The notes: generated from the sequence alone by a model not told the origin. A stretch of 64,000 nucleotides of DNA from Candidatus Saccharimonadales bacterium (GCA_035510465.1 DATKHC010000004.1:6481-70480), one strand, 5' to 3'; shown: positions 5,321 through 56,405, counted from the first letter of the stretch. Program-made: numbers and translations.

Positions 5321-5640
5321 AAACTCTTGTCCCTCACTATACTTAAAGTTTGATTGATTTTTGGATATTTGCTTTAGTATGCTTTATGTTACACCTATAG
5401 CATTACCATTTCAACTACATTATTTAACTGTAGTTTGAGAACGCTGTGGCATAGTAGTTAAGAGTACGATATAACGCTGTCATATCTACAGAACAAGCAA
5501 GCTTTTCGGCTTCTTGGGAGTAAAATCAAAGTCTTTAAACATATTAAGCACACTAGCAGTACTAGAATATCTGTCCAGTATCTCATTTATTAAGTCTTCT
5601 CGTGGAGTTTGAGCTGACTCTGCGTTGTGCAGCCAGTAAG

Positions 5641-5685
5641 TTATTGTATCTCTTAATTTGGTAGGTATGGCTATAGGGTTCGAAC
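5641..5685 (+). repeat. type-c linker module, copy 1 (TTATTGT.TCTCT..GGTATGGCTATAGGGTTCGAAC)
   Basis: Aligns by eye with 12721-12765 and 13721-13767. Contains an inverted T-loop-like GGRTTCGAAC. Preceded by ..CAGCCAGTAAGTTATTGT, similar to the CAGCCATAAAGTTATTGT that spans the 12715/12716 junction. Confidence 0.6.
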
Positions 5686-5709
5686 GCTTTAGTCGTGTTT
5701 CGGTAGTGC

Positions 5710-6276
5710 TTGCAATTTTCAGTGCCTGAACTCATATTTAACGTAATGTTACTTAGAACCGAGACGGGGTTAAAAGAGTTAACCGATTTTCCTGATGAAC
5801 CAATCCTGACAGTTTTAGATCATGAAGACTTTGAAGTGTTATTGGGAGCTCTAGATTCTCCCGTCAACGCCTGGCAAGCAACAGCGTATGAGTGTGAAGA
5901 TTCCCGCATAGACTACGAGCACAGGTTAGCAACCTCATATTATGGAGTTTTATATCACAAGCCGAGCAAGCCAGACGAAGATGAGCTGGGGGAGGTGAGA
6001 GAACGGCCACATATGGGGATATTGATTCAAGACTTGCCATTTGTGATGAGCGGGTGCGCCCGCGCTATTGGTTTAAAGGCAAACAGAGGTAATAAAAGAA
6101 TCATTGAAACCGCAATGACAATGTTGCCCGTCGTAAGAGAAGCAATTGACGACCTACATTACTTAGAAGTGGAAAATTCTGACTTGAAATACAAGCCCTA
6201 TACGGCAGAGGAGATAGGTGGATGGCGAGACATAGACACAGAGTTAGCGAAACTTAAAACAAGAGCTAGTGTTTAA
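5710..6276 (+). CDS. hypothetical protein (first visible cassette; start possibly at ATG 5746)
   Basis: ORF track with a TTG start; followed 9 nt later by a repeat copy. Confidence 0.45.
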   Translation: MQFSVPELIFNVMLLRTETGLKELTDFPDEPILTVLDHEDFEVLLGALDSPVNAWQATAYECEDSRIDYEHRLATSYYGVLYHKPSKPDEDELGEVRERPHMGILIQDLPFVMSGCARAIGLKANRGNKRIIETAMTMLPVVREAIDDLHYLEVENSDLKYKPYTAEEIGGWRDIDTELAKLKTRASV

Positions 6277-6285
6277 CTTTTTACG

Positions 6286-6314
6286 GTACGGAACTCAACC
6301 TCGAGTCCCAGCCA
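6286..6314 (+). repeat. 29-nt cassette repeat
   Basis: GTACGGAACTCAACCTCGAGTCCCAGCCA, followed by AGCATAAGCGGTTTGA. Confidence 0.9.
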
Positions 6315-6333
6315 AGCATAAGCGGTTTGATAT

Positions 6334-7551
6334 TTAAAATTTCAGAGTCGCAAAGTAATCGTCTGGGGTTTCAGTTCGTCTTATTAACTCAACTGTATTG
6401 TCTGGTCGCAACAGCAATTCAGCTGATCTCAACATCCCGTTATAGTTAAAACCCATAGTGTGTCCATGTGCACCAGCGTCGTGAATTATTACGACGTCTC
6501 CAACCTCTATTTCCGGTAGTTTACGATCTATGGCAAACTTATCGTTGTTTTCGCATAATGAGCCTGTTAAATCGTAAGAATTAGTACCAGAGCCGCCTTT
6601 ACCCAAGATCGTTATCTGATGATAGGCTCCGTACATACCTGGTCTCATCAAATTGTGCATCGAGGCATCTAACCCTATAAAAGTCTTATAGGTATGTTTT
6701 ATATGACGGACTTTGGTCACCAAATAGCCATGCGGCCCAGTTATATACCTACCGCATTCCATAAATACGGCCGGTTCGTAGGGTAAATAAGTTCTAAGTA
6801 GTTCTTCAACTTCTTGAGAAAAACCATCAATATCAAACTCTTTTTCTTCTAGTTTATAGGGAATGCCTATGCCACCACCAAGATTAATAAATTCAAGTTC
6901 AATATTGTTGGTTTCATAGATTTCTTTAGCAAGATCAAATAAGGCTTTAACTATTTCTAGAGCTACACTCTTATCTAGATTATTACTAATAACCATAGCA
7001 TGTAGTCCAAATCGTTTAACGCCTTTTTGCTGGGCTTGCTTAATGCCATCAATAATTTGTTGTTTTGTCATACCAAACTTGGCTTCTTCGGGTTGGCCAA
7101 TAATTTCATTGCCGTGAACTTGATCGCCAGGATTATAGCGAAAACATAACAAATCCGGTAACCCAGCTTCTTTTTCTAGGAAATCAATGTGAGAGATATC
7201 ATCCAGGTTAATAATGGCATCTAGCTCATGTGCCTTCTTAAAATCTGCAGCTGGAGTATCATTTGAGCTAAACATAACGTCACTGCCTTTAGCTCCAATT
7301 CTTTCTGCGAGTAGAAGCTCAGTATAAGAGCTACAGTCTAGACCCATACCCTCAGAAAGTAGTATTTCTAGGATTTTTGGGTTTGGGAGCGCTTTGACGG
7401 CAAAATAGTTTCGGAAGCCCTTATTCCATTTAAAAGCCTCTTTAATCTTTTGAGCGGCACTTCTGATACTACTTTCATCATAGACATAGAAGGGCGTAGG
7501 ATATTCTTCGGTGGCTTTTTTAATGATATTTTCATCAATTACCCTTCTCAT
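6334..7551 (-). CDS. fold-type III PLP-dependent decarboxylase (diaminopimelate/ornithine decarboxylase family)
   Basis: FAVKALPN (PLP-Lys region), LGGGIGIPY glycine loop, CENNDKF motif. Inverted relative to the flanking repeats. Confidence 0.75.
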   Translation of the reverse strand: MRRVIDENIIKKATEEYPTPFYVYDESSIRSAAQKIKEAFKWNKGFRNYFAVKALPNPKILEILLSEGMGLDCSSYTELLLAERIGAKGSDVMFSSNDTPAADFKKAHELDAIINLDDISHIDFLEKEAGLPDLLCFRYNPGDQVHGNEIIGQPEEAKFGMTKQQIIDGIKQAQQKGVKRFGLHAMVISNNLDKSVALEIVKALFDLAKEIYETNNIELEFINLGGGIGIPYKLEEKEFDIDGFSQEVEELLRTYLPYEPAVFMECGRYITGPHGYLVTKVRHIKHTYKTFIGLDASMHNLMRPGMYGAYHQITILGKGGSGTNSYDLTGSLCENNDKFAIDRKLPEIEVGDVVIIHDAGAHGHTMGFNYNGMLRSAELLLRPDNTVELIRRTETPDDYFATLKF

Positions 7552-7580
7552 TTGTCTATTCTACCAGTTTGAGCTAAATC

Positions 7581-7609
7581 GTATGGAATTCAACCTCGAG
7601 TCCCAGCCA
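7581..7609 (+). repeat. 29-nt cassette repeat
   Basis: GTATGGAATTCAACCTCGAGTCCCAGCCA, followed by AACGTAAGAAGTTT. Confidence 0.85.
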
Positions 7610-7625
7610 AACGTAAGAAGTTTAC

Positions 7626-7649
7626 GCGACTATACCCTTAAAGCAAGTA
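7626..7649 (-). repeat. module B repeat (reverse orientation)
   Basis: GCGACTATACCCTTAAAGCAAGTA is the reverse complement of TACTTGCTTTAAGGGTATAGTCGC. Followed by TCTAGTTCGAGTCTAG at 7658-7673. Confidence 0.6.
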
Positions 7650-7685
7650 GATCATTTTTCTAGTTCGAGTCTAGTGAACTCTTAT

Positions 7686-7714
7686 TTGACATAATCACAA
7701 CCTTTAAATAAACT
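7686..7714 (+). promoter_or_regulatory. sigma70-like promoter TTGACA-17-TAAACT
   Basis: TTGACA at 7686, 17-nt spacer, TAAACT at 7709. The same architecture is conserved upstream of the paralogue at 13783. Confidence 0.55.
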
Positions 7715-7759
7715 GGAGGTATTCTTTAAACAATCAAAAACAAAAAGGATTATAAAAAT

Positions 7760-9028
7760 ATGAAACTTCTCAAACTAAATCAAGAAGGTATAGCTCACTG
7801 GTTGGTACCTGCTTTAGTCATGGCTATAGTGGGGGTAGTAGGCGTAAGAGTACTGACAGCTACCCATGCTGCTGCGCCGTCTAGTGTGACAACTTCTAAT
7901 GCGTCTAAGCCTACCCCGCTTATTTATACCTCTTCTACCAGTTCAGGAACCACTTACTCAGTATATGCGTACGACTCAAGTGCAAAATCGAACCTCATCG
8001 AAGGACCATCGGCCAATACTGCTTATCAGTATCCGTCATATTCACCGAACGGTAAGCAAGCCGTATGGGTTCAGACTAATACCAGCGGTAGCAATACTGG
8101 CTATATGCAATTCTATAACGCCAATAATCAAACATTAACAGGCAACTACGTTCTTCCTGGTGGAGAAACAATAAGCGGGGGTGGACTATACGAAGTTAAG
8201 CCAGCATGGTTCCCTGGCAGTAGTAAGATAGCATTTGCACTAGAGAGTTCATCTGGAATATATTCAATCCAGACACTAACAACTTCTGGAAATTGGCATG
8301 ATGTCGCTAATCTATCAAGTTCATACGGAAACATAGATAGTGTAGCTGTAACGAACGACGGCAATTATGTGGTGTTTGGAACTAGCACAGGTGTCTATGC
8401 GGTTAAAGTATCAGATCCTAGTAAAATAACTACACTATGGAACGAGAGCGACGCCTTGCTGAAAGGACCAGTTGACCCTTCAGATACAAATTGTTACGCA
8501 ACGGAAGCACAACCAGGCACAACTGATGGAGTTGGTTGGATATGTAACTACTCTGGAAGTAACGTTAATGATTCGGGGTGGGAGGTAGATTCCGGTCTTA
8601 TTAAAGCTAGCTCTTACACCACAATATACTCAGATCAGTATTCAGGCACAGGGACAGCAACCTTTTATAATATTCAAGACCTAGCATGGTCGCCTAACGG
8701 AAATGAACTAGCGCTAGATACGATTAAGGAACACGTTGTTGGAAATAGTGAGTCTTGCGGCAAAGACACAGTACAAACCTCTATTCTCGGGTTAACAGAT
8801 TCGAAAGGAGCTAGCCCTACTAAAATAGCCAGTGGTCAAGTTAACCCTTCTCCTTGTAAAGGAGGAGGTAATGAAACATACGATAACAACGACCTCGCCT
8901 GGAGCCCTGATGGGAGTAGTCTAGCTTACATAGACAATGATTACATTTATGCAATACCTCCAAGTAATAGTAGCGGCTCATCAGCACCTGTACTTGTCTC
9001 TAGCAACTCTGCCGAACTAGATTGGTAA
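7760..9028 (+). CDS. membrane-anchored/secreted TolB-like beta-propeller protein
   Basis: N-terminal anchor MKLLKLNQEGIAHWLVPALVMAIVGVVGVRVLTATHAA. PD40-like repeats (YSPNGKQ, AWSPNGNELA, AWSPDGSSLAY). Confidence 0.65.
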   Translation: MKLLKLNQEGIAHWLVPALVMAIVGVVGVRVLTATHAAAPSSVTTSNASKPTPLIYTSSTSSGTTYSVYAYDSSAKSNLIEGPSANTAYQYPSYSPNGKQAVWVQTNTSGSNTGYMQFYNANNQTLTGNYVLPGGETISGGGLYEVKPAWFPGSSKIAFALESSSGIYSIQTLTTSGNWHDVANLSSSYGNIDSVAVTNDGNYVVFGTSTGVYAVKVSDPSKITTLWNESDALLKGPVDPSDTNCYATEAQPGTTDGVGWICNYSGSNVNDSGWEVDSGLIKASSYTTIYSDQYSGTGTATFYNIQDLAWSPNGNELALDTIKEHVVGNSESCGKDTVQTSILGLTDSKGASPTKIASGQVNPSPCKGGGNETYDNNDLAWSPDGSSLAYIDNDYIYAIPPSNSSGSSAPVLVSSNSAELDW

Positions 9029-9069
9029 GCTCGGGATGCCTGTAACTTTGGGGATTAAGAGGTTTATAG

Positions 9070-9160
9070 GTACGGAACGCGGACTTGATAATCAAACAAT
9101 GTCTATCTAGAAAATAATTGAATACTATCCTACTTGCACTCGAGGGATAAGCCCCACTTC
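9070..9160 (+). repeat. split/degenerate cassette repeat
   Basis: GTACGGAAC at 9070 then unrelated sequence; degenerate tail CACTTCAAATTCTAGCCA ends ~9160. Confidence 0.4.
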
Positions 9161-9178
9161 AAATTCTAGCCAAAATAG

Positions 9179-9204
9179 TTACTTGCTGTCATGGGATAGT
9201 CGCC
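9179..9204 (+). repeat. module B repeat
   Basis: TTACTTGCTGTCATGGGATAGTCGCC; compare 56406-56431. Confidence 0.6.
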
Positions 9205-9215
9205 GAAGTTTATAG

Positions 9216-9244
9216 TTGACGATACATAGCTTCTGTATTATAAT
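9216..9244 (+). promoter_or_regulatory. sigma70-like promoter TTGACG-17-TATAAT
   Basis: TTGACG at 9216, 17-nt spacer, TATAAT at 9239; upstream of proB. Confidence 0.5.
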
Positions 9245-9418
9245 AATCTTTATGTTAAAAACTTACCAAATCGCTATTTCAGTCCTTTCTCCTCCAGCAC
9301 CTACACAGCAGCTGGGGTAAGTTATATATTTCATTAAGTAATCACTAGTCAGTCTAACGCCCCAGCCAAGGGGCGTTTTAAATGCCTTTACCCAGATCTG
9401 ACTTTTTTGGATACTTAA

Positions 9419-10210
9419 ATGGAAAATTTAGATAAAAAAGACCTGCTGGTAGTTAAGGTAGGCACAAACTTACTTGTAGATAAAACTCAAGATCAGGAAA
9501 AATTAAACGACAACTCGTTCATACACATCGGCTCACAGGCACTTGAGCTTACGGAGAGTGGATACGGAGTCGTCATTGTATCATCCGGCGCAGTAACAGC
9601 TGGTGTAATTAGTGATGGCAAAAAACGTGACGGAACTGAAGAAATGGTTGAATTACAGAGATATGCAGCTCGAGGGTGGGACTCTGTTGTTAAAGCGTGG
9701 AAGCGGGCTATTGGATCTAATAGAGTAAGTTCAACCCTACTTACCAAAAGAGAGTTACGTGATCAGAAGACCCGTAAATCAGCGCTTGGGGTTATTGCAT
9801 GCTGCCTTGGCCACCAAGATATCTTTATCGTGAACGAGAATGACACTATTAGTGATGACGAGCTGAAGTATGGCAATAATGACACCTTGGCGGGTGAGCT
9901 AGCTTCCACTCTTGCAGTTGCTGGCATATTTAAATCGGCTAGATTAGTGTTATTAACTGATAAAAGTGGTCTTAACAGAGATAAGAACGACGATTCAACA
10001 CTAATTAGAGTAGTTAGTGATATAGAATCAGTACGGCTATATGCAGATGATTCTGGTGATATAAACTCTAAAGGAGGGATGTTAACTAAATTAAATGCGG
10101 CAGAACATGCTAAATTCTTCGGGATTGAGACGTTTATTGCTGGAGGTGCGGAGGATAGTTCGATTACTCGGGCAGTTAGCGGAGAGATCGGTACACGCTT
10201 TAAAATCTAA
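9419..10210 (+). CDS. proB: glutamate 5-kinase (amino-acid kinase fold, no PUA domain)
   Basis: VVKVGTNLL, VSSGAV and GNNDTLA motifs. Confidence 0.75.
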   Translation: MENLDKKDLLVVKVGTNLLVDKTQDQEKLNDNSFIHIGSQALELTESGYGVVIVSSGAVTAGVISDGKKRDGTEEMVELQRYAARGWDSVVKAWKRAIGSNRVSSTLLTKRELRDQKTRKSALGVIACCLGHQDIFIVNENDTISDDELKYGNNDTLAGELASTLAVAGIFKSARLVLLTDKSGLNRDKNDDSTLIRVVSDIESVRLYADDSGDINSKGGMLTKLNAAEHAKFFGIETFIAGGAEDSSITRAVSGEIGTRFKI

Positions 10211-10222
10211 GTAGACCTTGAC

Positions 10223-10251
10223 GTGCGGGGTTCAACCTCTATTCCCGGCCA
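10223..10251 (+). repeat. 29-nt cassette repeat (divergent copy)
   Basis: GTGCGGGGTTCAACCTCTATTCCCGGCCA, followed by AACATAAGCG. Confidence 0.75.
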
Positions 10252-10362
10252 AACATAAGCGTAATAATATGGCCGAGTGAGTACCCCGACAAAAAGCCAC
10301 GATAACCCCGACATTTTGGCTTAATACTTGCCATATACATACATGGAGCATACAATTAGTGT

Positions 10363-10620
10363 ATGAGTAATTATAAAACAATAAATATATCTTTGCCCGA
10401 AGATCTTCTTAAGAAAGTTGATGAAGAAGCAAGATCCGAATTTGCTAATCGAAGTGACTTCATAAGGGATACCTTAGTGCGTAGGTTAAAACACCAAAAA
10501 GTTATTGATGAATGGGGAGATGAAGGAGAATGGGAAACCATTGTCAATTTCAAGAGTATAGATTCATCTGGAATTAAGATTGAAGATGCCATAAAAGCGC
10601 TCGGTCAACTAACAAAGTAA
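10363..10620 (+). CDS. ribbon-helix-helix (CopG-type) antitoxin
   Basis: INISLPEDLLKKVDEEARSEFANRSDFIRDTLVRRL is a typical RHH. It ends 5 nt before the toxin gene. Confidence 0.7.
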   Translation: MSNYKTINISLPEDLLKKVDEEARSEFANRSDFIRDTLVRRLKHQKVIDEWGDEGEWETIVNFKSIDSSGIKIEDAIKALGQLTK

Positions 10621-10625
10621 GAGTT

Positions 10626-10871
10626 ATGGCCGACAAGATTGCCAAATTACTATCAAAAATCCCTATAAAAGATTTACTTAGAATTCAAGAGGCATTAAAG
10701 AAAATCAAATCGCTGCAACTTGAAGGACTGAATATTAAGGCTATTAAAGGTCAGAAAGATATATTTAGAGTCAGAATTGGAAGTTACAGGATAGTCTTCA
10801 AGATAAATGACAAAAATATTCGACTTCTAAAAATTGATAAAAGAAACGAAAAGACCTACAGAGGTTTCTGA
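10626..10871 (+). CDS. RelE/ParE-family toxin
   Basis: 81 aa; FRVRIGSYRIVFKINDKNIRLLKIDKRNEKTY matches the RelE/ParE C-terminal pattern. Confidence 0.7.
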   Translation: MADKIAKLLSKIPIKDLLRIQEALKKIKSLQLEGLNIKAIKGQKDIFRVRIGSYRIVFKINDKNIRLLKIDKRNEKTYRGF

Positions 10872-10878
10872 TTAGGTT

Positions 10879-10907
10879 GTACTGAACTCGACCTCGATTC
10901 CCAGCCA
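10879..10907 (+). repeat. 29-nt cassette repeat
   Basis: GTACTGAACTCGACCTCGATTCCCAGCCA; 7 nt after the toxin stop. Confidence 0.85.
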
Positions 10908-10911
10908 GGAC

Positions 10912-10940
10912 TTGACATTAGTTGGTATATATATTATTAT
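10912..10940 (+). promoter_or_regulatory. sigma70-like promoter TTGACA-17-TATTAT
   Basis: Begins 5 nt after the repeat. This makes the track start at 10912 unlikely. Confidence 0.45.
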
Positions 10941-10947
10941 ATTCTTT

Positions 10948-11223
10948 ATGTTTAAGTCTAAATCAAGTAATGAAGGTTCTGCCAGAACTAATTGTTTTGA
11001 TACGTTTGATTCAACAACTAATGGCACCCAAATACCGAAAAGACAAGAACCCTCAAGTGTATACGCTCCAGGCGATGACCCATTTGATCCTTTTGCCATG
11101 GCCGAAGTAGATCCAAGTACTTTTCCAGCAGCTCAATTAGACGAGGCACTCGCGAATGACGCACTATGGAGAGCGTACGAAAGCCAGCCATTAGTCGTTA
11201 TAGATTACGACAAACTAAGATAG
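10948..11223 (+). CDS. hypothetical small protein
   Basis: In-frame ATG at 10948 within track ORF 10912..11223; no motif recognised. Confidence 0.35.
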   Translation: MFKSKSSNEGSARTNCFDTFDSTTNGTQIPKRQEPSSVYAPGDDPFDPFAMAEVDPSTFPAAQLDEALANDALWRAYESQPLVVIDYDKLR

Positions 11224-11285
11224 TTTAGTTTTTCTTCTGATCTGTAGCAAAGTTCAAAATAGTTCGAAATTGTTATAATAGCTTA

Positions 11286-11942
11286 ATGAATGAATCTGTT
11301 GATGATTTAGCTAGAACACTCCTAGACTATATGAAAATGAATACGCCCGTAGAAAAGTCTGACGTCCTTATTGGCATGGGCGCATTGGACATAAGGATAG
11401 CTGAGCGAACTGCTCAATTATTCTTAGATGGATATGGCAAATATATTATTTTTACTGGTGGACTGGGCAAAATCACTAAACACACTCATACACAAACCGA
11501 AGCAGAACGATTTAGGGATACGGCAATAAAGATGGATGTACCGGAAGATAAGATTTTACTTGAGAAAGAAGCAACTAACTCAGGAGAAAATATTGTATTA
11601 GTCCAGGAGTTGCTTGAAAGTAAGGATCTTCACCCTAAGTCACTGCTTGTCGTTACAAAATCGTACATGGAACGAAGAATTTATGCTGCTTACAAAAAAC
11701 AGTGGAAAGATAAAGCTGCCAGAATTATAGTTACCTCACCACAAATTACATACGAAGAGCATTTCAATGAAGACATCCCAAAAGATCTATTTATAAATGT
11801 CATGGTCGGTGACCTGCAGAGAATTAAAGTATATCCTAAGCAGGGCTTTCAAATAGAGCAGAATATTCCGGAGAACGTCTGGGAAGCTTACAAGAAGTTG
11901 GTTAGATTAGGGTATACGGATTTTGTTATTAAGAATACTTAG
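11286..11942 (+). CDS. YdcF/DUF218-family protein
   Basis: VLIGMGALD..IIFTGGLG..TEAERFRDTAIKMDVPEDKILLEKEATNSGENI matches the DUF218 pattern. Confidence 0.65.
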   Translation: MNESVDDLARTLLDYMKMNTPVEKSDVLIGMGALDIRIAERTAQLFLDGYGKYIIFTGGLGKITKHTHTQTEAERFRDTAIKMDVPEDKILLEKEATNSGENIVLVQELLESKDLHPKSLLVVTKSYMERRIYAAYKKQWKDKAARIIVTSPQITYEEHFNEDIPKDLFINVMVGDLQRIKVYPKQGFQIEQNIPENVWEAYKKLVRLGYTDFVIKNT

Positions 11943-11980
11943 TCAATCAAGGTTCGAAAATCGTCCCTTATTGACAGCCA
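11942..11980 (+). repeat. hairpin variant of the cassette repeat ending AGCCA
   Basis: GTCAATCAAGG-TTCGAAAATCGTC-CCTTATTGAC + AGCCA: a 10-bp imperfect stem with a T-loop-like TTCGAAA. It occupies the position of the 29-mer. Confidence 0.6.
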
Positions 11981-12026
11981 ATATTTCACCTCTGTGAGTT
12001 TTTATGCTCACCTCAGTTCGAATCCC
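11981..12026 (+). repeat. type-b linker module
   Basis: ATATTTCACCTCTGTGAG..CTCACCTCAGTTCGAATCCC; compare 15203, and 56446 and 57758 in reverse. Confidence 0.6.
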
Positions 12027-12081
12027 TTATGGGTTCCTCCGCAAAAAGTCGTTTGAAATTTGTGGCTGTTATTATGTAGTC

Positions 12082-12675
12082 ATGAGCGAATCAAAGTTAA
12101 ACATTAGTGAACTCCTTAATAGCAAACGACCCAAAGCTGGTAAAACGAAATTTATAGCAATAGATGGTCATGGAGGAGCTGGTAAATCAACTTTGGCTAA
12201 TATGCTTTCTAAACAATTTAACGCACAATTGGTCCCCATTGATGACTTTGCAAGCTGGGATAACTCTGATTGGTGGCCACAAGTTATAAAGAACATATTT
12301 GAGCCGATATCGGGTGGAGCAACTTCACTTAACTATCCTCGTTCTTCTTGGTGGGAGGATCATCACCCAGAGCCTGTTGTCAATCAACCGGTTACAGACG
12401 TAATGATTCTAGAGGGGGTAAGTTCCTCAAGAACCGAATTTCGTAAATATCTAAGTCTGATTATCTTCGTAAACACGCCTAAAGATCTGTGTATGAAAAG
12501 AGGCATCGAAAGAGACTTGAGCACCGGAAAATCTGTAGAAGAGCTGACGGAAATGTGGACAAAGTGGTATCAAGAAGAAGATGGATACATAGCTAGAGAT
12601 CACCCTCGGGATTTTGCTGATGTAGTGATCGACGGGACTCGACCTTACAATGAGCAAATAGTTACAGCCACTTAA
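12082..12675 (+). CDS. P-loop nucleoside/nucleotide kinase-like protein
   Basis: Walker A in IAIDGHGGAGKSTLANML. Start moved to MSESKLN because the track N-terminus overlaps the type-b module. Confidence 0.55.
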   Translation: MSESKLNISELLNSKRPKAGKTKFIAIDGHGGAGKSTLANMLSKQFNAQLVPIDDFASWDNSDWWPQVIKNIFEPISGGATSLNYPRSSWWEDHHPEPVVNQPVTDVMILEGVSSSRTEFRKYLSLIIFVNTPKDLCMKRGIERDLSTGKSVEELTEMWTKWYQEEDGYIARDHPRDFADVVIDGTRPYNEQIVTAT

Positions 12676-12686
12676 GCTTTTAGATT

Positions 12687-12715
12687 GTACGGAACTCAAC
12701 CTCAACCCCCAGCCA
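12687..12715 (+). repeat. 29-nt cassette repeat
   Basis: GTACGGAACTCAACCTCAACCCCCAGCCA. Confidence 0.85.
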
Positions 12716-12720
12716 TAAAG

Positions 12721-12765
12721 TTATTGTCTCTGTTATTTTACTGAGTATGAATATAGGATTCGAAC
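12721..12765 (+). repeat. type-c linker module, copy 2
   Basis: TTATTGTCTCTGTTATTTTACTGAGTATGAATATAGGATTCGAAC. Confidence 0.6.
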
Positions 12766-12771
12766 TTTGTT

Positions 12772-13686
12772 ATGATGAGTCCAGTTATGGACGACCATTT
12801 TGAAAAAAATGCCTTGAGTTGGGGAGAGGGTGGAGCAGCTTGGCTTAAGAGCATTCCAAAAGTTATCAAAAAATATGAAAGTAGGTGGTCGATTAAAGTC
12901 TTGCCGCCTTACACGCTTAGCTTTAATTACGTAGCGCCTGTCCAAAGGGCTGATGGATCGATGGCAGTACTTAAAATGATCTATCCGGGTGACCTGGAGT
13001 TTAAATCTGAAATTAAAGCGCTAGAATACTTTAAAGGTAATGGCATTGTTAAGCTGCTAGAAGTAGATGAAAAAGACGCGATAATTCTACTGGAACATAT
13101 TGCCCCGGGTAAACCGCTGTCTTCTTTAGATAACGACGATCAAGCAACCAAAATAATTGCCAAGGTTATAAAGAAATTACAGGAGAAATCATCAACTGCT
13201 AACAATTTTGTCAGTATCAATGACTGGGTTTCAGAAATACCAAAATATAAACAAGGATTTCTAGGTGAACAAGCTCCATTACCAACATTATTAGTAAATA
13301 AAGCTGAGATATTATTTAAACAGCTTATTGCAACTTCTGCTAAGCCTATACTTGTCCATGGTGATCTGCATCACGATAATATACTTCAATCAAATAAATC
13401 TGGATGGCTAGCAATCGACCCCAAAGGCGTTTCGGCTGAACCGGCTTACGAAGTGGCAGCTATGATTCGTAACCCCTACGAGAAGCTCAAAGATATACCA
13501 GATCTTGCACCTTTACTGCGAAGACGGATTACTATTTTATCCGAAGAACTAGAAATTGACCCCCAGCGTATTTTGGATTGGTGCTTTGCGCAGACAATGC
13601 TCTCAGCGGTATGGAGTGTTGGAGGAGTCAAAGGCCCCGAACACGCTCTAAGAGTCGCGGAAACTTTAGACACACTTGCACTTTAA
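12772..13686 (+). CDS. aminoglycoside phosphotransferase, APH(6)/streptomycin-kinase-like
   Basis: HGDLHHDNIL catalytic loop, LAIDPKG, and overall APH(6)-like layout. Confidence 0.7.
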   Translation: MMSPVMDDHFEKNALSWGEGGAAWLKSIPKVIKKYESRWSIKVLPPYTLSFNYVAPVQRADGSMAVLKMIYPGDLEFKSEIKALEYFKGNGIVKLLEVDEKDAIILLEHIAPGKPLSSLDNDDQATKIIAKVIKKLQEKSSTANNFVSINDWVSEIPKYKQGFLGEQAPLPTLLVNKAEILFKQLIATSAKPILVHGDLHHDNILQSNKSGWLAIDPKGVSAEPAYEVAAMIRNPYEKLKDIPDLAPLLRRRITILSEELEIDPQRILDWCFAQTMLSAVWSVGGVKGPEHALRVAETLDTLAL

Positions 13687-13689
13687 GCG

Positions 13690-13718
13690 GTACGGAACTC
13701 AACCTCAATTCCCAGCCA
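13690..13718 (+). repeat. 29-nt cassette repeat
   Basis: GTACGGAACTCAACCTCAATTCCCAGCCA; 3 nt after the stop. Confidence 0.9.
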
Positions 13719-13720
13719 TG

Positions 13721-13767
13721 TAGTTTTTCTCTCTGTTAATTTTGCGGTATGGTTATAGGATTCGAAC
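13721..13767 (+). repeat. type-c linker module, copy 3
   Basis: TAGTTTTTCTCTCTGTTAATTTTGCGGTATGGTTATAGGATTCGAAC. Confidence 0.6.
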
Positions 13768-13782
13768 TTTCTAATCCGTTAC

Positions 13783-13811
13783 TTGACATAACCATTAGCT
13801 TTACCTAAACT
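13783..13811 (+). promoter_or_regulatory. sigma70-like promoter TTGACA-17-TAAACT
   Basis: Same hexamers and spacing as 7686-7714. Confidence 0.55.
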
Positions 13812-13867
13812 GAAAGTATTCTTTAGAAATTAAAACAATGAAATAACAAACAAAAAGGAATTAAAGT

Positions 13868-15088
13868 ATGAAGCTTATTAAATTAAACCAAGCTGGTATA
13901 GCTCACTGGCTAGTGCCAGCCCTAGTAGTGGCTATAATTGGCGTGGTGGGCGTAAGAGTACTAACAGCTACTCATGCGGCTACGCCAGCAATAGCTAATA
14001 ATTCTTCTTCGACAGGTCCTTTGCTATTTACCACAATAAATAATAATCAGAACCCCGTCACAACTAGTGTAATAACTGTAAACCAAAACGGCTCAGGGAA
14101 ATCAACCATAACTCCACAAAATCAAGCGTATCCTTGGGGTTTCGTATGGAGTCCTGATCATACGCAAATTGCATACACAGATTTGGTATATTCCACTCCA
14201 AATGACGTCTCTACAGCAAGGGGGACGATTAACATAATGAATGATAATGGTACAGACTCACAAGTCATTAAAACAATGCCAGCAGGCTCAGGGCTATCTA
14301 ATTTAGTTTGGTCGCCCGACGGCAAAAGTCTTCTATTCGCGGATGGGTCGTCTACAAATAAGAAAGACAAGAGTAAAGTTTATACAATAGGAGTAAATGG
14401 CAAAAACTTAAATTCGATCGCTAATCTGGAGCCCAATACGGGTGCCCAAGACATGCAATGGTCTCCAAACAGCAAGGAAGTTCTACTTACTGGAGAGCCG
14501 AAGACAAACCCGCAAGAAGAGTTGACGTATGTGTATACCGCTTCGGGTAAATTAGTTGCTACCCTACCGACACCGAATAATAGCTCTTTCTGGGGTAACG
14601 ATGCCTGGACACCTGATAACTCATCTTTGATATTTCATAACAATACCAATAACGAGATTTCAGAGATGAATGTCGCCACTCAAGCAGTAACTGCTATAGC
14701 TCCGGCCTCTTGCAGTAGCAATGATGTATCTTCGGTCAACGTGTCACCGAATGGCGATTTAATATCCTATGACTGTGTAACACCAGTACCCGATACCACT
14801 CCTACCCAGTTTACTAACAGCATAGTAGTCTCTACCATTACAGGCTCTAACCCTGTCGTTGTCGCGTCAGGAATACTAAGTGAAGGTGTTAATAACGCAC
14901 TGCCAACAGAGCGAGGCTGGGCTTATAACAGTACGGCTCTGGATTATTACGTTAGTAGTACCCCAACATCTTCTAACGGTAATCTATACACCGTTAATGC
15001 TGATGGTTCAGATACAAAAGCAGCCCTTAAAAATGTCTCAAATACTGAGATATTCACTTGGAATAGTTCGCCCAGTAATATTTTTTAA
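13868..15088 (+). CDS. membrane-anchored/secreted TolB-like beta-propeller protein (paralogue of 7760..9028)
   Basis: First ~38 aa nearly identical to 7760..9028. PD40-like VWSPDHTQIAY, VWSPDGKSLLF, QWSPNSKEV. Confidence 0.65.
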   Translation: MKLIKLNQAGIAHWLVPALVVAIIGVVGVRVLTATHAATPAIANNSSSTGPLLFTTINNNQNPVTTSVITVNQNGSGKSTITPQNQAYPWGFVWSPDHTQIAYTDLVYSTPNDVSTARGTINIMNDNGTDSQVIKTMPAGSGLSNLVWSPDGKSLLFADGSSTNKKDKSKVYTIGVNGKNLNSIANLEPNTGAQDMQWSPNSKEVLLTGEPKTNPQEELTYVYTASGKLVATLPTPNNSSFWGNDAWTPDNSSLIFHNNTNNEISEMNVATQAVTAIAPASCSSNDVSSVNVSPNGDLISYDCVTPVPDTTPTQFTNSIVVSTITGSNPVVVASGILSEGVNNALPTERGWAYNSTALDYYVSSTPTSSNGNLYTVNADGSDTKAALKNVSNTEIFTWNSSPSNIF

Positions 15089-15173
15089 TTCTGTATAACC
15101 TGGCTAATCATTAAGTCACCGAATCTGTTAATTCTGATTCTATGGGTATAGGAGTGACTTATTTATCTGTACT

Positions 15174-15202
15174 GTACGGAACTCAACCTCAATTCCCAGC
15201 CA
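15174..15202 (+). repeat. 29-nt cassette repeat
   Basis: GTACGGAACTCAACCTCAATTCCCAGCCA. Confidence 0.9.
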
Positions 15203-15247
15203 ATATTTCACCCCTGAGTACATTTGCTTCCACCTCTGTTCGAATCC
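15203..15247 (+). repeat. type-b linker module
   Basis: ATATTTCACCCCTGAG..CCACCTCTGTTCGAATCC. Confidence 0.6.
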
Positions 15248-15298
15248 TTTATGCATACAGTAATAGATTTATAGAGCCAAATATTATATAATATTCGT

Positions 15299-15877
15299 AT
15301 GGCAAAGCAATTAGAAGTTGCGAATTGGGACGACTTAAAAGCTGTATCCGAGTTATCTGGTTTAATGTGGTCTCAAGCTGAACCTGGCTTCCAAATAGAA
15401 GGGGTCAGTGACATCGAGCAGTTAGTGTTCGTGCTAGATAGTTTAAAAACTGCCGTTCCCAAACAAGTGACAGGTGTGGTGAATTTTGATTCTGCTTATC
15501 CATGGAATGGGTTTGAACAATTTAAGCCAGAACCGCAAGATGCACATATCGATACTGATTTCACTGGTATAGCAGTACATCAAAATATCTCTACTACAGT
15601 CCCCGTAAAACTTGGTATAGCTAGGTACCCATGGAATGGTGGCACAATAAATGAAGATACGGCCACTGGAATTAGAGAAGGCGAAACAATTCCGGGTAGA
15701 TTGACGGTATTTTCAGAAGGATGGCCTGAGATGATGAGAAAGACGGCTCATTTTTTCGATCGAACAGCTGGTACACCTATTTTTTTGTCAAGATATACGC
15801 AATCTACTGATACGCCGGCGAATAATATACCTAAAATCGCTGCTGAAAGCTTTGAATTATTGAAAAGGTATCGCTAA
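15299..15877 (+). CDS. hypothetical protein
   Basis: ORF track; single gene between two repeat copies. Confidence 0.45.
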   Translation: MAKQLEVANWDDLKAVSELSGLMWSQAEPGFQIEGVSDIEQLVFVLDSLKTAVPKQVTGVVNFDSAYPWNGFEQFKPEPQDAHIDTDFTGIAVHQNISTTVPVKLGIARYPWNGGTINEDTATGIREGETIPGRLTVFSEGWPEMMRKTAHFFDRTAGTPIFLSRYTQSTDTPANNIPKIAAESFELLKRYR

Positions 15878-15881
15878 ACAC

Positions 15882-15910
15882 GTACGGAACTCAATCTCGA
15901 TTCCCAGCCA
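15882..15910 (+). repeat. 29-nt cassette repeat
   Basis: GTACGGAACTCAATCTCGATTCCCAGCCA, followed by AAGCGTAAGCGTTTT. Confidence 0.9.
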
Positions 15911-15973
15911 AAGCGTAAGCGTTTTAGGTTCGTTAATTTCGTTCGGCTATCAGATAAATTAAAATTGGAGAGG

Positions 15974-16528
15974 TTAATTAGAGCCTAAATATTTAAAAGA
16001 AGCAGCAATTGTCTTTATATCGTTTGGGTTTGGTTTAGTCGCTTGAATAGCGGCTTCATTACTAGTGTTAACTTGTTGACCAGGGCTGTAAGGAGCGATA
16101 TTTATCGCATACACCGTGGTGCTATTACCAAAAAATGAATTAAACTCCACAGGACTAACTGAATATTGACTAGGATTAGTGCAAAAGTTGGCATTTACGC
16201 CTATAGATTTAATAAACACTGAAAATGCCTGAACATTTTCAGTGTTTGAAGAAGATGAACAATTGTTGGAATTTTCTACAAGTTGTTGTGCTGACTGAGT
16301 GCTATTGTTAGGTCTTCCTGATAGCGACATCACAAGTGAGACACCCCCTTTACTAATAGGCGGAGAGACTAATACGTTATCAGTAACAGTACCGAAGTTG
16401 TAACTTTGAGTAGAAGAACCCTTATAGAAAAGTATGCTATATTTATCGCCTTTATCGTTGGTTAAGGTGTACTGTCTGAGCTTTGAGTTAATCAATGTCG
16501 CCCGTAAATTATAGTTAGTAGAGACCAA
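15974..16528 (-). CDS. hypothetical Ser/Asn-rich protein (TTG start; possibly the C-terminal part of a frameshifted gene)
   Basis: ORF track. Its frame stays open upstream to ~16570 and overlaps ORF 16492..16764. Confidence 0.4.
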   Translation of the reverse strand: MVSTNYNLRATLINSKLRQYTLTNDKGDKYSILFYKGSSTQSYNFGTVTDNVLVSPPISKGGVSLVMSLSGRPNNSTQSAQQLVENSNNCSSSSNTENVQAFSVFIKSIGVNANFCTNPSQYSVSPVEFNSFFGNSTTVYAINIAPYSPGQQVNTSNEAAIQATKPNPNDIKTIAASFKYLGSN

Positions 16529-16764
16529 TGCCCCAAACGTAGCCAGTGGCGCTTTGGCTTGTTAATTTGGGCCTGTGACAGAGAGGCGTAGCTGGTGCTA
16601 GTAGGATGGGAGTCAACGCTCGTGTTCGGTGACAAATTACTAGCTGTAACTTTAAGAGGTGTATCTGTTGTGGGCTGCTCTGGTACGGAGGGAGGAACGT
16701 TCGATTGTTCTGGCGAAGTAGGGTTTTGATTTTGCTCATTGTCCATCAAGATCAAATATAACAC
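16492..16764 (-). pseudogene. possible N-terminal fragment of the same gene (low-complexity Pro/Ser/Thr-rich leader ending in KPKR)
   Basis: Overlaps 15974..16528 in another frame; a 1-nt shift near 16540-16570 would join them. Confidence 0.3.
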
Positions 16765-16810
16765 TTGTGCTTATCTGAGCATAGTGAACAGGATGGATTG
16801 ACACTACGCT

Positions 16811-16839
16811 GTACGGAACTCAACCTCGATCCCCAGCCA
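16811..16839 (+). repeat. 29-nt cassette repeat
   Basis: GTACGGAACTCAACCTCGATCCCCAGCCA, followed by AGCATAAGCATTTTGA. Confidence 0.9.
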
Positions 16840-16926
16840 AGCATAAGCATTTTGACCTCTTATTTCTATTATCTGATAGAGCTTATTGGCTGACCCTTGT
16901 GTTTTTCTCTGTTAATATAGAACTAA

Positions 16927-18312
16927 ATGGATGAATTGAACCCACAAAAGCTGAAAGCAGCAGTTAAGTACATAAATTCCTGGCTTGAGGTTAACTTTGA
17001 AAACTCAAGGCTACCAGCAATGCAGGTTGCTATTCAACATGGCAGTAAGATCATTTACTCAGAAGCATTTGGATATTCGGACGTAAAAGCTAAAGAAAAG
17101 CTAAATACTAGAAATGTTTTTAGGATCGCTTCTCATTCAAAGACCTTTACCGCCACCGCGATAATGCTGCTAGTAGAAGCCGGTAAGTTAAATCTCGATG
17201 ACAAGGTCAACAAATACGTTAGCTGGTTTAAGTCATCTAAAGATAAAAGAGTACAGGAAGTAACAATTCGGCAACTTCTAAATCATACTGCTGGAATAGT
17301 TAGAGATGGCTATGATTCAAACTTCTGGCAATTGCTGCATGAATTTCCCGATAAGAATGAGCTTAAAGCTTTTATATCTGACAGTAAATTGGTATATGAC
17401 CCTGATGAAAAGTTTAAGTATTCTAACTTTGGGTTTGGTTATCTTGGGCAAGTAATTGAGGCCGTAAGTGAAGTTTCATACCGAGAATATGTGACAAAAA
17501 ACATCGTTGATAAATTGGGTCTTAAATCGACTGGCCCTGACCTAGACTCTAAAGCCAAGAAACTCTTAGCAACTGGTTACGGGATCGAAATATTTAACAA
17601 AGAACGTCGAGTATTTGATCATATCGACACGCATGCTTTGTCTTCTGCGACAGGCTTTTATAGTAATGCAGAGGATTGCTGCCGATATTTCGCTTCTCAC
17701 TTCATTGGCAATAACTCTCTGATTAGCGATAAGTCTAAACGTTTAATGCAGCATGGTTATTGGAAGTCAGAGGGTACAAAAGAACGCTACGGACTGGGAA
17801 TGGTAAATTATAAATTAAACAGCTGGAATATTTTTGGACATAGCGGTGGATTTCCTGGTTTTACGACAAATACAAAGTTTGATGCTAAAAAGCAGCTTGT
17901 TGTATCAGTTTTAATTAATGCTTACGGCACATACACCAGCAATATATGCTCAAAATTGATTAGTATTATTGATACCTTCCAGCAAGATACTGCAAACATC
18001 AAAACCGACGTTACTAATCTGAAGAAGTTTGAAGGAAGGTTTTTCTGTACATGGGGACCAACGGACGTAATTCTTGCGGGAAAGAAGCTACTCGCTATTG
18101 ATCCATTAAACTGGGCTGATTTTGAAGACTGCGAAGAATTGACCGTTTTAGATGAAGATACCCTAAAAATTGCAAAATCCAGTGGCTACGGTCATTCTGG
18201 TGAATTAATTAAGTATAAATTTGATTCTAAGGGTAAAATCACCTCCTTTACTTATGCGGGAAGAACAATGCTTCCTTTTAATGAAGCTCAAAAACAAGGG
18301 TGGTTTTCATAA
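16927..18312 (+). CDS. beta-lactamase-family serine hydrolase (class C / PBP4*-like)
   Basis: SxxK (ASHSK), YxN (KYSNFG) and HSGG box. Confidence 0.7.
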   Translation: MDELNPQKLKAAVKYINSWLEVNFENSRLPAMQVAIQHGSKIIYSEAFGYSDVKAKEKLNTRNVFRIASHSKTFTATAIMLLVEAGKLNLDDKVNKYVSWFKSSKDKRVQEVTIRQLLNHTAGIVRDGYDSNFWQLLHEFPDKNELKAFISDSKLVYDPDEKFKYSNFGFGYLGQVIEAVSEVSYREYVTKNIVDKLGLKSTGPDLDSKAKKLLATGYGIEIFNKERRVFDHIDTHALSSATGFYSNAEDCCRYFASHFIGNNSLISDKSKRLMQHGYWKSEGTKERYGLGMVNYKLNSWNIFGHSGGFPGFTTNTKFDAKKQLVVSVLINAYGTYTSNICSKLISIIDTFQQDTANIKTDVTNLKKFEGRFFCTWGPTDVILAGKKLLAIDPLNWADFEDCEELTVLDEDTLKIAKSSGYGHSGELIKYKFDSKGKITSFTYAGRTMLPFNEAQKQGWFS

Positions 18313-18344
18313 ACCTACAGATAAAATTATTACATCATTAAATC

Positions 18345-18373
18345 GTACGGAACTCAACCTCAATTCCCAGCCA
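18345..18373 (+). repeat. 29-nt cassette repeat (last + copy)
   Basis: GTACGGAACTCAACCTCAATTCCCAGCCA. ATAAGCACTATGGGCAAT at ~18399 resembles the variant repeat family of the middle array. Confidence 0.9.
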
Positions 18374-18710
18374 TTTGATTTAACAGGTGTGATTATACAT
18401 AAGCACTATGGGCAATAAAATTCTATCTCTGTTAAAATGTTCGAATCCTTTGCCCTTGAATTGTACTGTTAACTTATCTCCCTTGAACAGGCGGATGGTC
18501 AAAAACGTCGATGTCATTTACTAAGGCGTAGCCTAATACTGGTGTTATGGCTTTTGTACTAAAAACAAAAGCTGATTCTCCTGATGAAATTCCTACAGTG
18601 GTATCTTGATAAAGAACCGGATCAAAAGTTGTACTGGACCCATTATTCTAGACAGTATTGTCTACAATAAGTTGTAGCAATATAGCAAACTAGTAATAGG
18701 GGGTTCACTT

Positions 18711-31225: not shown

Positions 31226-32356
31226 TTAGTAGTTCCTAAATACTAAAGCTATATTTGCTTGGGAGATATTAGCGCCTGTCTGGTTAATGTTTGCAAGACT
31301 AATCGAAACTGGTACGGCGTTAGTAGTAGCTGAAAGAATACCCATACCAGAATACCAGTTCACCGAAGTTGCAGTTAAGGCTCCTATCTCACCATAATTA
31401 AGAGCAGTTGCGATTTGGTTACCTCCATACATTGAAAGAGTTTGAGCTAAGTTGGTAGTAGCCGTTCCCACTGAACTTGAGTTAGTGCTGAAACCAAAGC
31501 CCACATAATATTCGCCAGGAGTCATATTTATATTAACTGGGACTGATATAGGCCGAATAGCCGAGTTAATTGATGACCAACTAGCCGAGTTGGAAGCGTA
31601 CTGATAAGTTGTGTGAGTTGAACCACTCGATACACTAGATAAAGTTTGACCATTAAGAGTATAAATCCCAGCAATAGCGGTCAAGGCAATAGCGGCGGTA
31701 TTAGCAGCAGCTGACGTACCCGCACTCCATGAAACAAGAGCATCTAGTCTGGTAGCCGTAATCCAGTTATCAGCATTAACATATTGAATAGAATAACTAG
31801 CATTAGCAGGAGCTGAGATCAGAGTAAGCATCCTATCTGGATAGAGACTGCGAGATAACATAGGGTGAATACTGCCCGTAATAGTTGAACCGTTAGTAGA
31901 GAAACTAACTCCGGCTGTGCCCACCATACTTGAAATAGCGGGCACAGAGAACAGAACTGATTGTGCTCCTGAGCTTATAGTCAGTGGTGCTCCGCCATTA
32001 TTGGACATTACTACCGTGCCTGATGTGAATGTAGCGTTAGAAGCTGCAATAGCTACACCTGAAGGCACGGTGTATGATCCTGTCATCGTTGAGCCATTCA
32101 AGCCAAATGCCAATCCATTTGAGTTAGAGAAGGTTATAGCTGACAGGTTGTTGCTGGTAGAGCCACCAGAAACGTTAATGGCAGATATAAGCCCTGCAAT
32201 TGAAGGCACGGTGTATGATCCTGTCATCGTTGAGCCATTCAAGCCAAACGCCAATCCATTTGAGTTAGAGAAGGTAACTTGAGTTAGGTTATTTGAAGTT
32301 GCACCGGCTGAAACATTAAGCGAACCCGGGGCGTTAGAAAAAGGGAGTAACGCCAT
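31226..32356 (-). CDS. fibre-like protein with internal 47-aa repeat
   Basis: TFSNSNGLAFGLNGSTMTGSYTVPS occurs twice. Confidence 0.5.
   Translation of the reverse strand: MALLPFSNAPGSLNVSAGATSNNLTQVTFSNSNGLAFGLNGSTMTGSYTVPSIAGLISAINVSGGSTSNNLSAITFSNSNGLAFGLNGSTMTGSYTVPSGVAIAASNATFTSGTVVMSNNGGAPLTISSGAQSVLFSVPAISSMVGTAGVSFSTNGSTITGSIHPMLSRSLYPDRMLTLISAPANASYSIQYVNADNWITATRLDALVSWSAGTSAAANTAAIALTAIAGIYTLNGQTLSSVSSGSTHTTYQYASNSASWSSINSAIRPISVPVNINMTPGEYYVGFGFSTNSSSVGTATTNLAQTLSMYGGNQIATALNYGEIGALTATSVNWYSGMGILSATTNAVPVSISLANINQTGANISQANIALVFRNY
32061..32275 (-). repeat. two 74-bp near-identical direct repeats (32061-32134 and 32202-32275), period 141 bp, inside the gene
   Basis: GAAGGCACGGTGTATGATCCTGTCATCGTTGAGCCATTCAAGCCAAA[T/C]GCCAATCCATTTGAGTTAGAGAAGGT; one mismatch. 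Confidence 0.85.
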
Positions 32357-54106: not shown

Positions 54107-54112
54107 CTACTA

Positions 54113-54141
54113 TGGCTGGGAATCAAGGTTGAATTCCGTAC
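54113..54141 (-). repeat. 29-nt cassette repeat (first - copy)
   Basis: TGGCTGGGAATCAAGGTTGAATTCCGTAC. Confidence 0.85.
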
Positions 54142-54157
54142 CGTGACCTTGTAGGAA

Positions 54158-55138: not shown

Positions 55139-55203
55139 ACGACAATATTAGCACAATAAACTAAATTTTACTATGTTTTTGTCGTATGAAACGAAAACGC
55201 TTA

Positions 55204-55232: not shown

Positions 55233-55233
55233 C

Positions 55234-56399: not shown

Positions 56400-56405
56400 A
56401 AATGG

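Follow-up and report, generated by a model that had tools for sequence, protein, structure and literature searches.

A 64,000 nt stretch of a Candidatus Saccharimonadales bacterium metagenome-assembled genome (MAG; GCA_035510465.1 DATKHC010000004.1:6481-70480), referred to here as the window, contains two genes, A and B, that begin alike and then diverge. Each encodes an N-terminal leader of about 38 residues followed by a beta-rich mature part of the PD40 type. Both open reading frames (ORFs) are present at the positions in Table 1, counted, as are all positions below, in the window. Public databases list their products as hypothetical proteins (VMR34_01000 and VMR34_01040) on a 90 kb contig of 'MAG TPA: Candidatus Saccharimonadales bacterium', and the sole other contigs that carry either gene have identical sequences. 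The organism is also present in the sequencing runs SRR8676596 and SRR8676597 of the source community. This report is concerned with the leader, with the promoter and 5' untranslated region (UTR) ahead of it, and with the arrays of repeats in which the two genes lie.

Two genes with a common 5' end

The predicted proteins start with MKLLKLNQEGIAHWLVPALVMAIVGVVGVRVLTATHAA (A) and MKLIKLNQAGIAHWLVPALVVAIIGVVGVRVLTATHAA (B), and 34 of their first 38 residues are identical. Upstream of both is TTGACA-17-TAAACT, at 7686..7714 for A and 13783..13811 for B, followed by G-A--GTATTCTTTA and then by an A-rich UTR that includes AAAGGA. The preliminary description of this DNA had proposed that promoter, UTR and leader are held in common, and each was found as it had been given. 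A blastn comparison aligns 7682..7878 with 13779..13986 at 75.7% identity over 210 columns (E=5e-36). The window has two copies of the 18 nt block TAAACTGNANNTATTCTT, where 0.01 would be expected, and there are identical runs of 15 and 14 nt between the two genes.

The likeness ends abruptly. In sliding windows the DNA identity between A and B is 0.70-0.78 across ~7680 to ~7880 and 0.35-0.45 further downstream, the latter being the background level for AT-rich DNA here. Divergence is clearly non-uniform rather than spread evenly over the genes, and the common module amounts to ~200 nt made up of promoter, 5' UTR and a 38-codon leader. The mature parts are clearly different, as had been described, with 24% identity in a global alignment; compared alone they give just matches of E~0.1, centred on the WSP[ND]G repeats. 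Further upstream, part of the likeness, that between 7581..7609 and 13690..13718, belongs to a 29 nt repeat and is not specific to this pair of genes.

Table 1. Positions of features in the window (pLDDT, predicted local distance difference test; pTM, predicted template modelling score; AF2, AlphaFold2)
Feature	Position	Strand	Remarks
Large serine recombinase, 561 aa	~1..1573	-	Resolvase + Recombinase + Zn_ribbon_recom, distantly XisF/Ccr-like; truncated at the window start, complete in contig L008 at 2129-3814 (-)
Helix-turn-helix protein, 192 aa	1605..2183	-	adjoins the large serine recombinase
Cassette array 1	5630..18374	+	~12 mostly single-gene units separated by the 29 nt core; strong copies start at 6286, 7581, 10879, 12687, 13690, 15174, 15882, 16811 and 18345; degenerate copies at 5630, 9070, 10231 and 11952
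Core repeat, left boundary of cassette A	7581..7609	+	GTATGGAATTCAACCTCGAGTCCCAGCCA
Promoter-like block of A	7686..7728	+	TTGACA-17-TAAACT then GGAGGTATTCTTTA; part of a 41 nt pattern common to B and P0030, with a similar block in P0028
Shine-Dalgarno sequence of A	7744..7749	+	AAAGGA, within the conserved 5' UTR block CAAAAAGGA
Gene A	7760..9028	+	422 aa
Leader of A, codons 1-38	7760..7873	+	KLNQxG[FI]AHW...G...SHA; predicted specialised signal peptide; AF2 helix 11-34
Mature part of A	7874..9028	+	Ser/Thr-rich linker and divergent PD40-type beta-rich domain; low-confidence insert at residues 233-302
Interrupted/degenerate repeat, right boundary of cassette A	9070..9172	+	GTACGGAAC at 9070..9078, ~77 nt of other sequence, ACTTCAAATTCTAGCCA at 9156..9172
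APH(6)-type aminoglycoside/hydroxyurea kinase homologue	12772-13686		PF04655, E=4e-46; own cassette
Core repeat, left boundary of cassette B	13690..13718	+	
Promoter-like block of B	13783..13825	+	TTGACA-17-TAAACT then GAAAGTATTCTTTA
Shine-Dalgarno sequence of B	13854..13859	+	AAAGGA
Gene B	13868..15088	+	406 aa
Leader of B, codons 1-38	13868..13981	+	34/38 residues the same as in A
Mature part of B	13982..15088	+	linker and PD40-type beta-propeller; AF2 pLDDT 76.8, pTM 0.78; best PDB matches TolB propellers
Core repeat, right boundary of cassette B	15174..15202	+	
Beta-lactamase-fold protein, 461 aa	16927-18312		PF00144, E=1e-60; own cassette
IS3-family integrase-core ORF	18985-19797	+	directly after the last array 1 repeat
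75 nt direct repeat, 98.7%	32060-32134 and 32201-32275		inside ORF 31226..32356 (weak tail-fibre-like match)
Neighbouring genes without a Pfam match	35395..36492 and 36621..37697	-	3' ends (35393-35802 vs 36619-37028) with 68% DNA identity over 410 nt
Cassette array 2	54112..60654	-	same core, 10 copies, ~10 units; plus one + copy at 56370..56400

The leader in other proteins

A profile made from the two leaders was used in an exhaustive hmmsearch of 1.84 billion cluster representatives (E<=1e-3). The leader was found at the N-terminus of 138 protein clusters, nearly all aligned from residue 1, in proteins of 51-711 aa. The consensus is MK..KLNQ.G[FI]AH[WY][ILV].P.LVV..I[GA].[IV]G.[YR]VL..SHA[AD]TP. 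In the logo of the 138 sequences, G10, H13, G28 and A37 are each conserved in 99%, H36 in 89%, K5, L6 and N7 each in 84%, P17 in 83% and S35 in 82%, with T at this position in another 11%; position 35 is S, T or G in 97%. A word-indexed protein search with the 42 aa leader returned 1 fragment and missed both A and B, which contain the query at 100% and ~85% identity, and negatives from such a search are unreliable for short queries.

The proteins that carry the leader have little else in common. The mature parts of 134 members represent 49 Pfam families, including fn3, PG_binding_1, Neprosin, PD40, ricin and bulb lectins, GH26, GH5, GDSL lipase, PKD, cohesin and peptidase A4. These are domains typical of secreted or extracytoplasmic proteins. 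The constant export module on variable ectodomains that had been suggested for A and B is therefore seen on a far more general scale than was supposed. All members with an organism name are Candidatus Saccharimonadales (names were obtained for 5 of the 30 looked up). Within the window the leader is present on A and B only, although other exported proteins are encoded there, so that it marks a subset of the secretome.

At a threshold as loose as E<=10, the leader still has no match among the models of Pfam-A or NCBIfam 20.0. Neither the leader motif nor any signal-peptide motif, integron or gene cassette of the Saccharibacteria/Patescibacteria was found described in the searchable literature. 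As judged from these sequences, the leader is a conserved and uncatalogued predicted export tag on unrelated families of secreted proteins of the Saccharimonadales.

Four genes of one genome share promoter, UTR and leader

Four of the leader proteins come from the same MAG as the window. In addition to A and B, the search for further members added VMR34_03540 (P0030), a third PD40 propeller paralogue, and VMR34_01990 (P0028), a non-propeller protein of 184 aa. All four genes have the promoter/UTR block. That of P0030, which is on another contig, reads TTGAC-N17-TAAACTGnAnnTATTCTT ... CAAAAAGGA ... ATG, and in the DNA examined the pattern of 41 nt with 27 fixed positions is confined to the regions ahead of A, B and P0030. 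Leader genes in two other genomes have kept the leader and the Shine-Dalgarno sequence and not this promoter, so the promoter part is genome-specific. The shared promoter suggests that the genes which have it may be co-regulated.

P0030 and P0028 align over 208 nt at 81.7% identity (E=5e-52). Between -65 and +133 the identity runs at 0.70-0.92, and beyond that it drops to background; between the mature parts there is no similarity (blastp E>2). Since these two genes share promoter, UTR and leader only, with bodies that are not homologous, they show that the unit has been exchanged between genes. Promoter, UTR and leader together are, on this pattern, a putative portable expression-and-export module. 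The modular exchange that the preliminary description had raised is thus borne out for P0030 and P0028 of the same genome. It is not for A and B themselves, which have weakly homologous bodies and a dN/dS of 0.05 in the leader. A slow leader on a fast body is also the pattern between likely orthologues: P0042, a protein of 173 aa found in a different sample, closely matches P0028 in the leader, whereas the mature parts of the two have only 29% identity.

IS1595-family transposases, unrelated to the IS3-family ORF of the window, are located just downstream of both P0030 and P0028, in contigs L012 (1616-2506, -) and L017 (5219-6082, -). Within the window, two other cassettes have similar strong promoter-like sites, at 9216-9259 (amino-acid kinase) and 10912-10955 (the unit before DUF218), with 73% identity over 44 nt and the form TTGAC.-17-TAT.AT then A(A/T)TCTTTATGTT(A/T)AA. 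The ATTCTTTA box downstream of the -10 element is therefore not confined to the two propeller genes.

Selection and conversion in the leader

Between A and B the 38 leader codons have 18 synonymous and 5 non-synonymous differences. The proportion of synonymous sites that differ (pS) is 0.60 (dS ~1.2), that of non-synonymous sites (pN) is 0.06, and dN/dS is ~0.05. Synonymous sites are near saturation, so this is not a recent copy and the amino acids have long been held constant. The constancy of the leader in A and B is mainly the result of purifying selection on a specialised signal peptide, and not of a recent swap or gene conversion.

The 5' ends of A and B are, however, closer than their bodies predict. 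Leader identity is 89% between A and B, 53-66% for the other pairs among A, B, P0030 and P0020 (a propeller from another genome) at a like mature identity (24-29% among all pairs of the four), and 76% between P0030 and P0028. Where the amino acids are identical, the codons of A and B are also identical in 17 of 32 cases in the leader and 25 of 77 in the mature part (one-sided p=0.037).

It could be supposed from this that the shared 5' ends reflect concerted evolution only, through gene conversion of paralogous 5' regions in one genome, and that the leader is an ordinary Sec signal. The promoter/UTR block is indeed common to the four genes of the MAG and absent from the leader genes of other genomes. 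The pS of the P0030/P0028 leader, at 0.49, is lower than the 0.7-0.8 of other pairs, and the excess of identical codons and the identical runs in A and B point the same way. However, with the pS and dS of A and B any conversion between them would be old, and yet only 4 of the 38 residues differ. The same invariant residues recur across 138 clusters, drawn from many contigs and genomes, which conversion within a genome cannot yield, and 99% conservation at each of four positions is not a property of ordinary signal peptides. Conversion as the whole explanation is therefore improbable.

A probable specialised signal peptide

The leader has the n-h-c layout of a Sec-type signal: a basic n-region, a hydrophobic stretch at residues 11-34, and small residues at positions 35 and 37. 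The n-region has the motif K-L-N-Q-x-G-[FI]-A-H-[WY], the hydrophobic helix of ~20 residues includes P17 and the invariant G28, and the c-region ends in S-H-A. The Sec system would export the protein, and signal peptidase I would most likely cleave it after S-H-A, with the small residues at -3 and -1. By analogy with other specialised signal peptides, such as those of Gram-positive bacteria, the invariant G-x-x-H motif at the helix's inner (cytoplasmic) edge probably steers this part of the secretome to a specific route or place. What would then come to lie outside the cell is a linker rich in Ser and Thr, together with a binding or enzymatic domain that evolves fast.

This would make the leader comparable to the YSIRK-G/S signal of Gram-positive surface proteins (Pfam PF04650 / TIGR01168), the profile of which is [YF]SIRKxxxGxxS. 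That signal also has a conserved motif at the junction of the n- and h-regions of a long Sec-type signal peptide, and it too is present on many unrelated surface or secreted proteins with varying mature domains, being restricted to a subset of the secretome. The two differ in that the invariant residues here are G, H, G and S-H-A, in the lineage, which here is Saccharimonadales within the candidate phyla radiation (CPR), and in that the localisation associated with the leader is a prediction. A direct relationship between them was rejected, with no Pfam or NCBIfam match at E<=10 and an hhalign probability of 0.3% against a set of YSIRK example sequences.

The type IV prepilin, or class III, signal (N_methyl PF07963, TIGR02532) is the other obvious comparison. 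It has G at -1, a hydrophobic residue at +1 and Glu at +5 (N_methyl / IV_pilin_GFxxxE), and, as in the leader, a short basic segment with an invariant Gly and then F/I precedes a hydrophobic helix of ~20 residues. The leader might then be cut after G10 by a prepilin peptidase, with the F/I-A-H-W helix kept as an anchor or for assembly by machinery related to that of type IV pili. Its n-region is short and basic (8-10 residues) and ends in a 99% conserved Gly followed by F/I, A/S/T and ~20 hydrophobic residues, which AF2 models as a continuous helix from 11 to 34. Saccharibacteria encode type IV pili that are important for episymbiosis, and the archaeal proteins with class III signals are a model for anchoring cargo in this prepilin-like manner. 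Against this, the hallmark Glu at +5 is missing, position 15 being I, L or V and never E, and no prepilin N-terminal model in Pfam or NCBIfam is matched even at E<=10. Cleavage after G10 would give no reason for the nearly invariant S-H-A where the helix ends on its outer side, and many of the proteins carried are soluble enzymes (GH5, GH26, lipase, peptidases) and lectins rather than pilins. Processing of this kind is judged unlikely.

The leader may also be read as an uncleaved signal-anchor, a tether with its N-terminus inside and its C-terminus outside, the conserved residues of which interact within the membrane. A helix of 20-24 residues with conserved Pro and Gly would suit this, as would the Ser/Thr-rich stalk that comes next, which is typical of tethered surface proteins. 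The small residues at -3 and -1 in 97-99% are, however, the classical signal peptidase I pattern, for which an anchor has no need, and an uncleaved tether is accordingly quite improbable. The prepilin and anchor readings are both given the lower weight because of the missing Glu at +5, the conserved S-H-A and the enzymes among the cargo.

The mature propellers

Without their leaders, A and B are near-orphans, the best foreign matches of which are generic PD40 proteins at 20-29% identity. AF2 models, made from shallow alignments, place a helix at residues 11-34 in both proteins, then a disordered linker rich in Ser/Thr, then an all-beta domain. In B, residues 1-50 are helix and disordered linker, and the propeller starts from about residue 52. 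The model of A is weaker (pLDDT 64), with its insert at low confidence; A nevertheless passes the PD40 Pfam cut-off (28.1 bits vs 20.9). B matches P0030 at E=9e-7. The mature parts of A and B are taken to retain a weak homology, as PD40 propellers of a single paralogue family, because they align over their full length, are similar in the linker and first strand, and because of this match between B and P0030. The bodies are probably fast-evolving binding modules.

A and B had been described as TolB-like. As a statement about fold this holds, since in Foldseek searches the TolB propellers are the best matches of B (E=1e-12), and PD40-like repeats are present in both proteins. It does not extend to orthology. 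TolB of the Tol-Pal system has an N-terminal alpha/beta domain ahead of a C-terminal six-bladed PD40 propeller. This domain was not found in the AF2 models of A or B, in which the propeller comes directly after helix and linker. Identity to TolB is just 13-18% with a TM-score of ~0.4, and S9-peptidase and other propellers, which come next, match B about equally well. There are no tol-pal genes beside A or B; the adjoining genes are unrelated cassettes encoding an ornithine/diaminopimelate (Orn/DAP) decarboxylase, an amino-acid kinase, the APH(6)-like kinase and unknowns. That A and B are TolB orthologues, with N-terminal ends alike through ordinary paralogy, can hardly be entertained.

The proposed interpretation

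The explanation that best accounts for these observations, with a probability of roughly 0.6, is that A and B belong to a small paralogue family of exported beta-propeller proteins with the PD40 (TolB) fold and share a portable module of ~200 nt. The promoter of the module would be sigma-70-like, with conserved positions beyond the usual ones (TTGAC-N17-TAAACTGnAnnTATTCTT). The 5' UTR is short, rich in A and carries the ribosome-binding site CAAAAAGGA, and the third part would be a specialised signal peptide of 37-38 residues. Strong purifying selection would hold the leader, while the mature domains diverge fast or are replaced outright by recombination.

Several points weigh against this interpretation. 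Secretion, cleavage after S-H-A and a role in sorting are predictions from the sequence, and the hydrophobic helix is long, its ~20-24 residues being compatible also with an uncleaved membrane anchor or with an N-terminus of the pilin kind. The invariant G10, H13 and G28 have no functional explanation, and no dedicated machinery was found. The assignment to the lineage comes from the names of the 5 of 30 members noted above, and the homology of the mature parts of A and B is argued from weak similarity. Finally, as identical codons are commoner in the leader than in the mature part, an old exchange or conversion, or a constraint at the nucleotide level, may add to the likeness of the two leaders.

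Cassette arrays with a 29 nt repeat

A and B are each bounded by copies of the 29 nt direct repeat GTACGGAACTCAACCTCGATTCCCAGCCA, of which there are ~20 in the window against 0 expected. With the exception of the copy at 56370..56400, all plus-strand copies are within 5.6-18.4 kb, and all those on the minus strand are within 54.1-60.7 kb. The information profile of the repeat has sharp edges on both sides. Copies are mostly 8-40 nt downstream of a stop codon, and their orientation follows that of the array even where the enclosed gene is inverted. The units between them are 0.6-1.5 kb and mostly of one gene. The cargo includes the two propellers, a ribbon-helix-helix (RHH)/ParE toxin-antitoxin pair, an APH(6)-like kinase, a beta-lactamase-fold protein, an Orn/DAP decarboxylase, kinases, a Fic protein, a HAD hydrolase and unknowns. 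The APH(6)-type kinase and the beta-lactamase-fold protein are, by homology, resistance-like cargo in a CPR genome.

The same core is found with entirely different cargo in the metagenome contigs L002-L004, L006 and L007 and in a 780 kb MAG (OY969420.1, L001). One copy is on another contig of the present MAG (L012, 4177-4207). Short-read assemblies break at the repeat. It was not found among the phages and plasmids of IMG/VR, INPHARED or PLSDB, and it has no Rfam match at the gathering threshold or at E<=1.

There is a clear likeness to integron arrays and to clusters of attC sites lacking integron-integrases (CALINs). The units are unidirectional and tightly packed, are mostly of one gene and are separated by a repeat of fixed orientation. 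Toxin-antitoxin pairs, a kinase, beta-lactamase-fold and Fic proteins and unknowns are among the cargo, and relatives keep the repeat with different cargo between the copies. However, attC sites have imperfect inverted repeats (R''-L''...L'-R') that fold into a hairpin of 57-141 nt, and integrons have a tyrosine recombinase of the IntI type and promoterless cassettes of one ORF. The core here is 29 nt, non-palindromic and sharp-edged. No attC-like hairpin or dyad was found in it when both strands were folded with their flanks (z-scores -1.7 to +1.0). Several of the cassettes carry strong promoter-like sites of their own. No Phage_integrase match is present among the scanned ORFs of the window (>=110 aa), and there is no tyrosine recombinase within ~3.5 kb beyond its right end. 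The only recombinase nearby, the large serine recombinase, is ~4 kb away from where array 1 begins and has no copy of the repeat beside it; its link to the arrays is unproven. The 29 nt arrays are possibly a new cassette system that has gone unnoticed.

Other identities for the repeat were considered and rejected. It ends in CCA and has the T-loop-like TCGATTCC, as a tRNA 3' end or an integrase att site might, but is too short after the loop and is unlike the three tRNAs of the window. As an attC, dif/Xer site or terminator it lacks a hairpin, a dyad and a GC stem with a T run.

Two copies of the repeat, at 56370-56400 (+) and 56490-56520 (-), face each other ~90 nt apart. This fits a past inversion between repeats, which could explain the opposite directions of the two arrays. 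Secondary modules follow the core at 11952-12031, 15203-15253, 56440-56490 and 57750-57803, and also at 5630-5685, 12716-12770 and 13719-13775. Their classes are ATATTTCACCTCTG...GTTCGAATCC, then ..TCTCTGTTAATTT..GTATGG.TATAGGATTCGAAC with an extended -10-like TGTTAAT, and AGCATAAGCnTTTT. The remaining elements of the window, among them the ORF with an IS3-family integrase core and two sets of internally similar sequences, are listed in Table 1.

Implications for the Saccharimonadales

Saccharibacteria and related lineages spend their lives attached to other bacterial cells, and what they display at the surface decides which host can be used. To our knowledge, almost nothing has been established about how their secretome is sorted. 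The leader tag provides a simple sequence rule by which a subset of the exported proteins can be listed in any Saccharimonadales genome, and it is a handle for phylogenetic profiling toward the peptidase or targeting factor that reads it. Promoter and leader together would be a ready-made part for the expression and export of reporters in strains that can be genetically manipulated.

The 29 nt arrays, whose cassettes include a kinase, a beta-lactamase-fold protein and a toxin-antitoxin pair, may be a system of cassette capture unlike that of the integrons. A bolder proposal would join all of these elements: the leader would mark an undescribed dedicated sorting pathway (for example to the host-contact face, or with processing of the pilus type), the promoter, UTR and leader would be a self-contained recombining unit for expression and export, and the arrays would be a new, non-integron type worked by a recombinase yet to be identified. 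This is put forward tentatively, as a possibility that is more doubtful than the interpretation given above. The mosaic gene pairs, in which the tag travels with its promoter, suggest a cheap route to novelty at the surface in reduced genomes. If dedicated sorting and a recombining unit do go together in this way, a tiny genome could re-tool its surface quickly.

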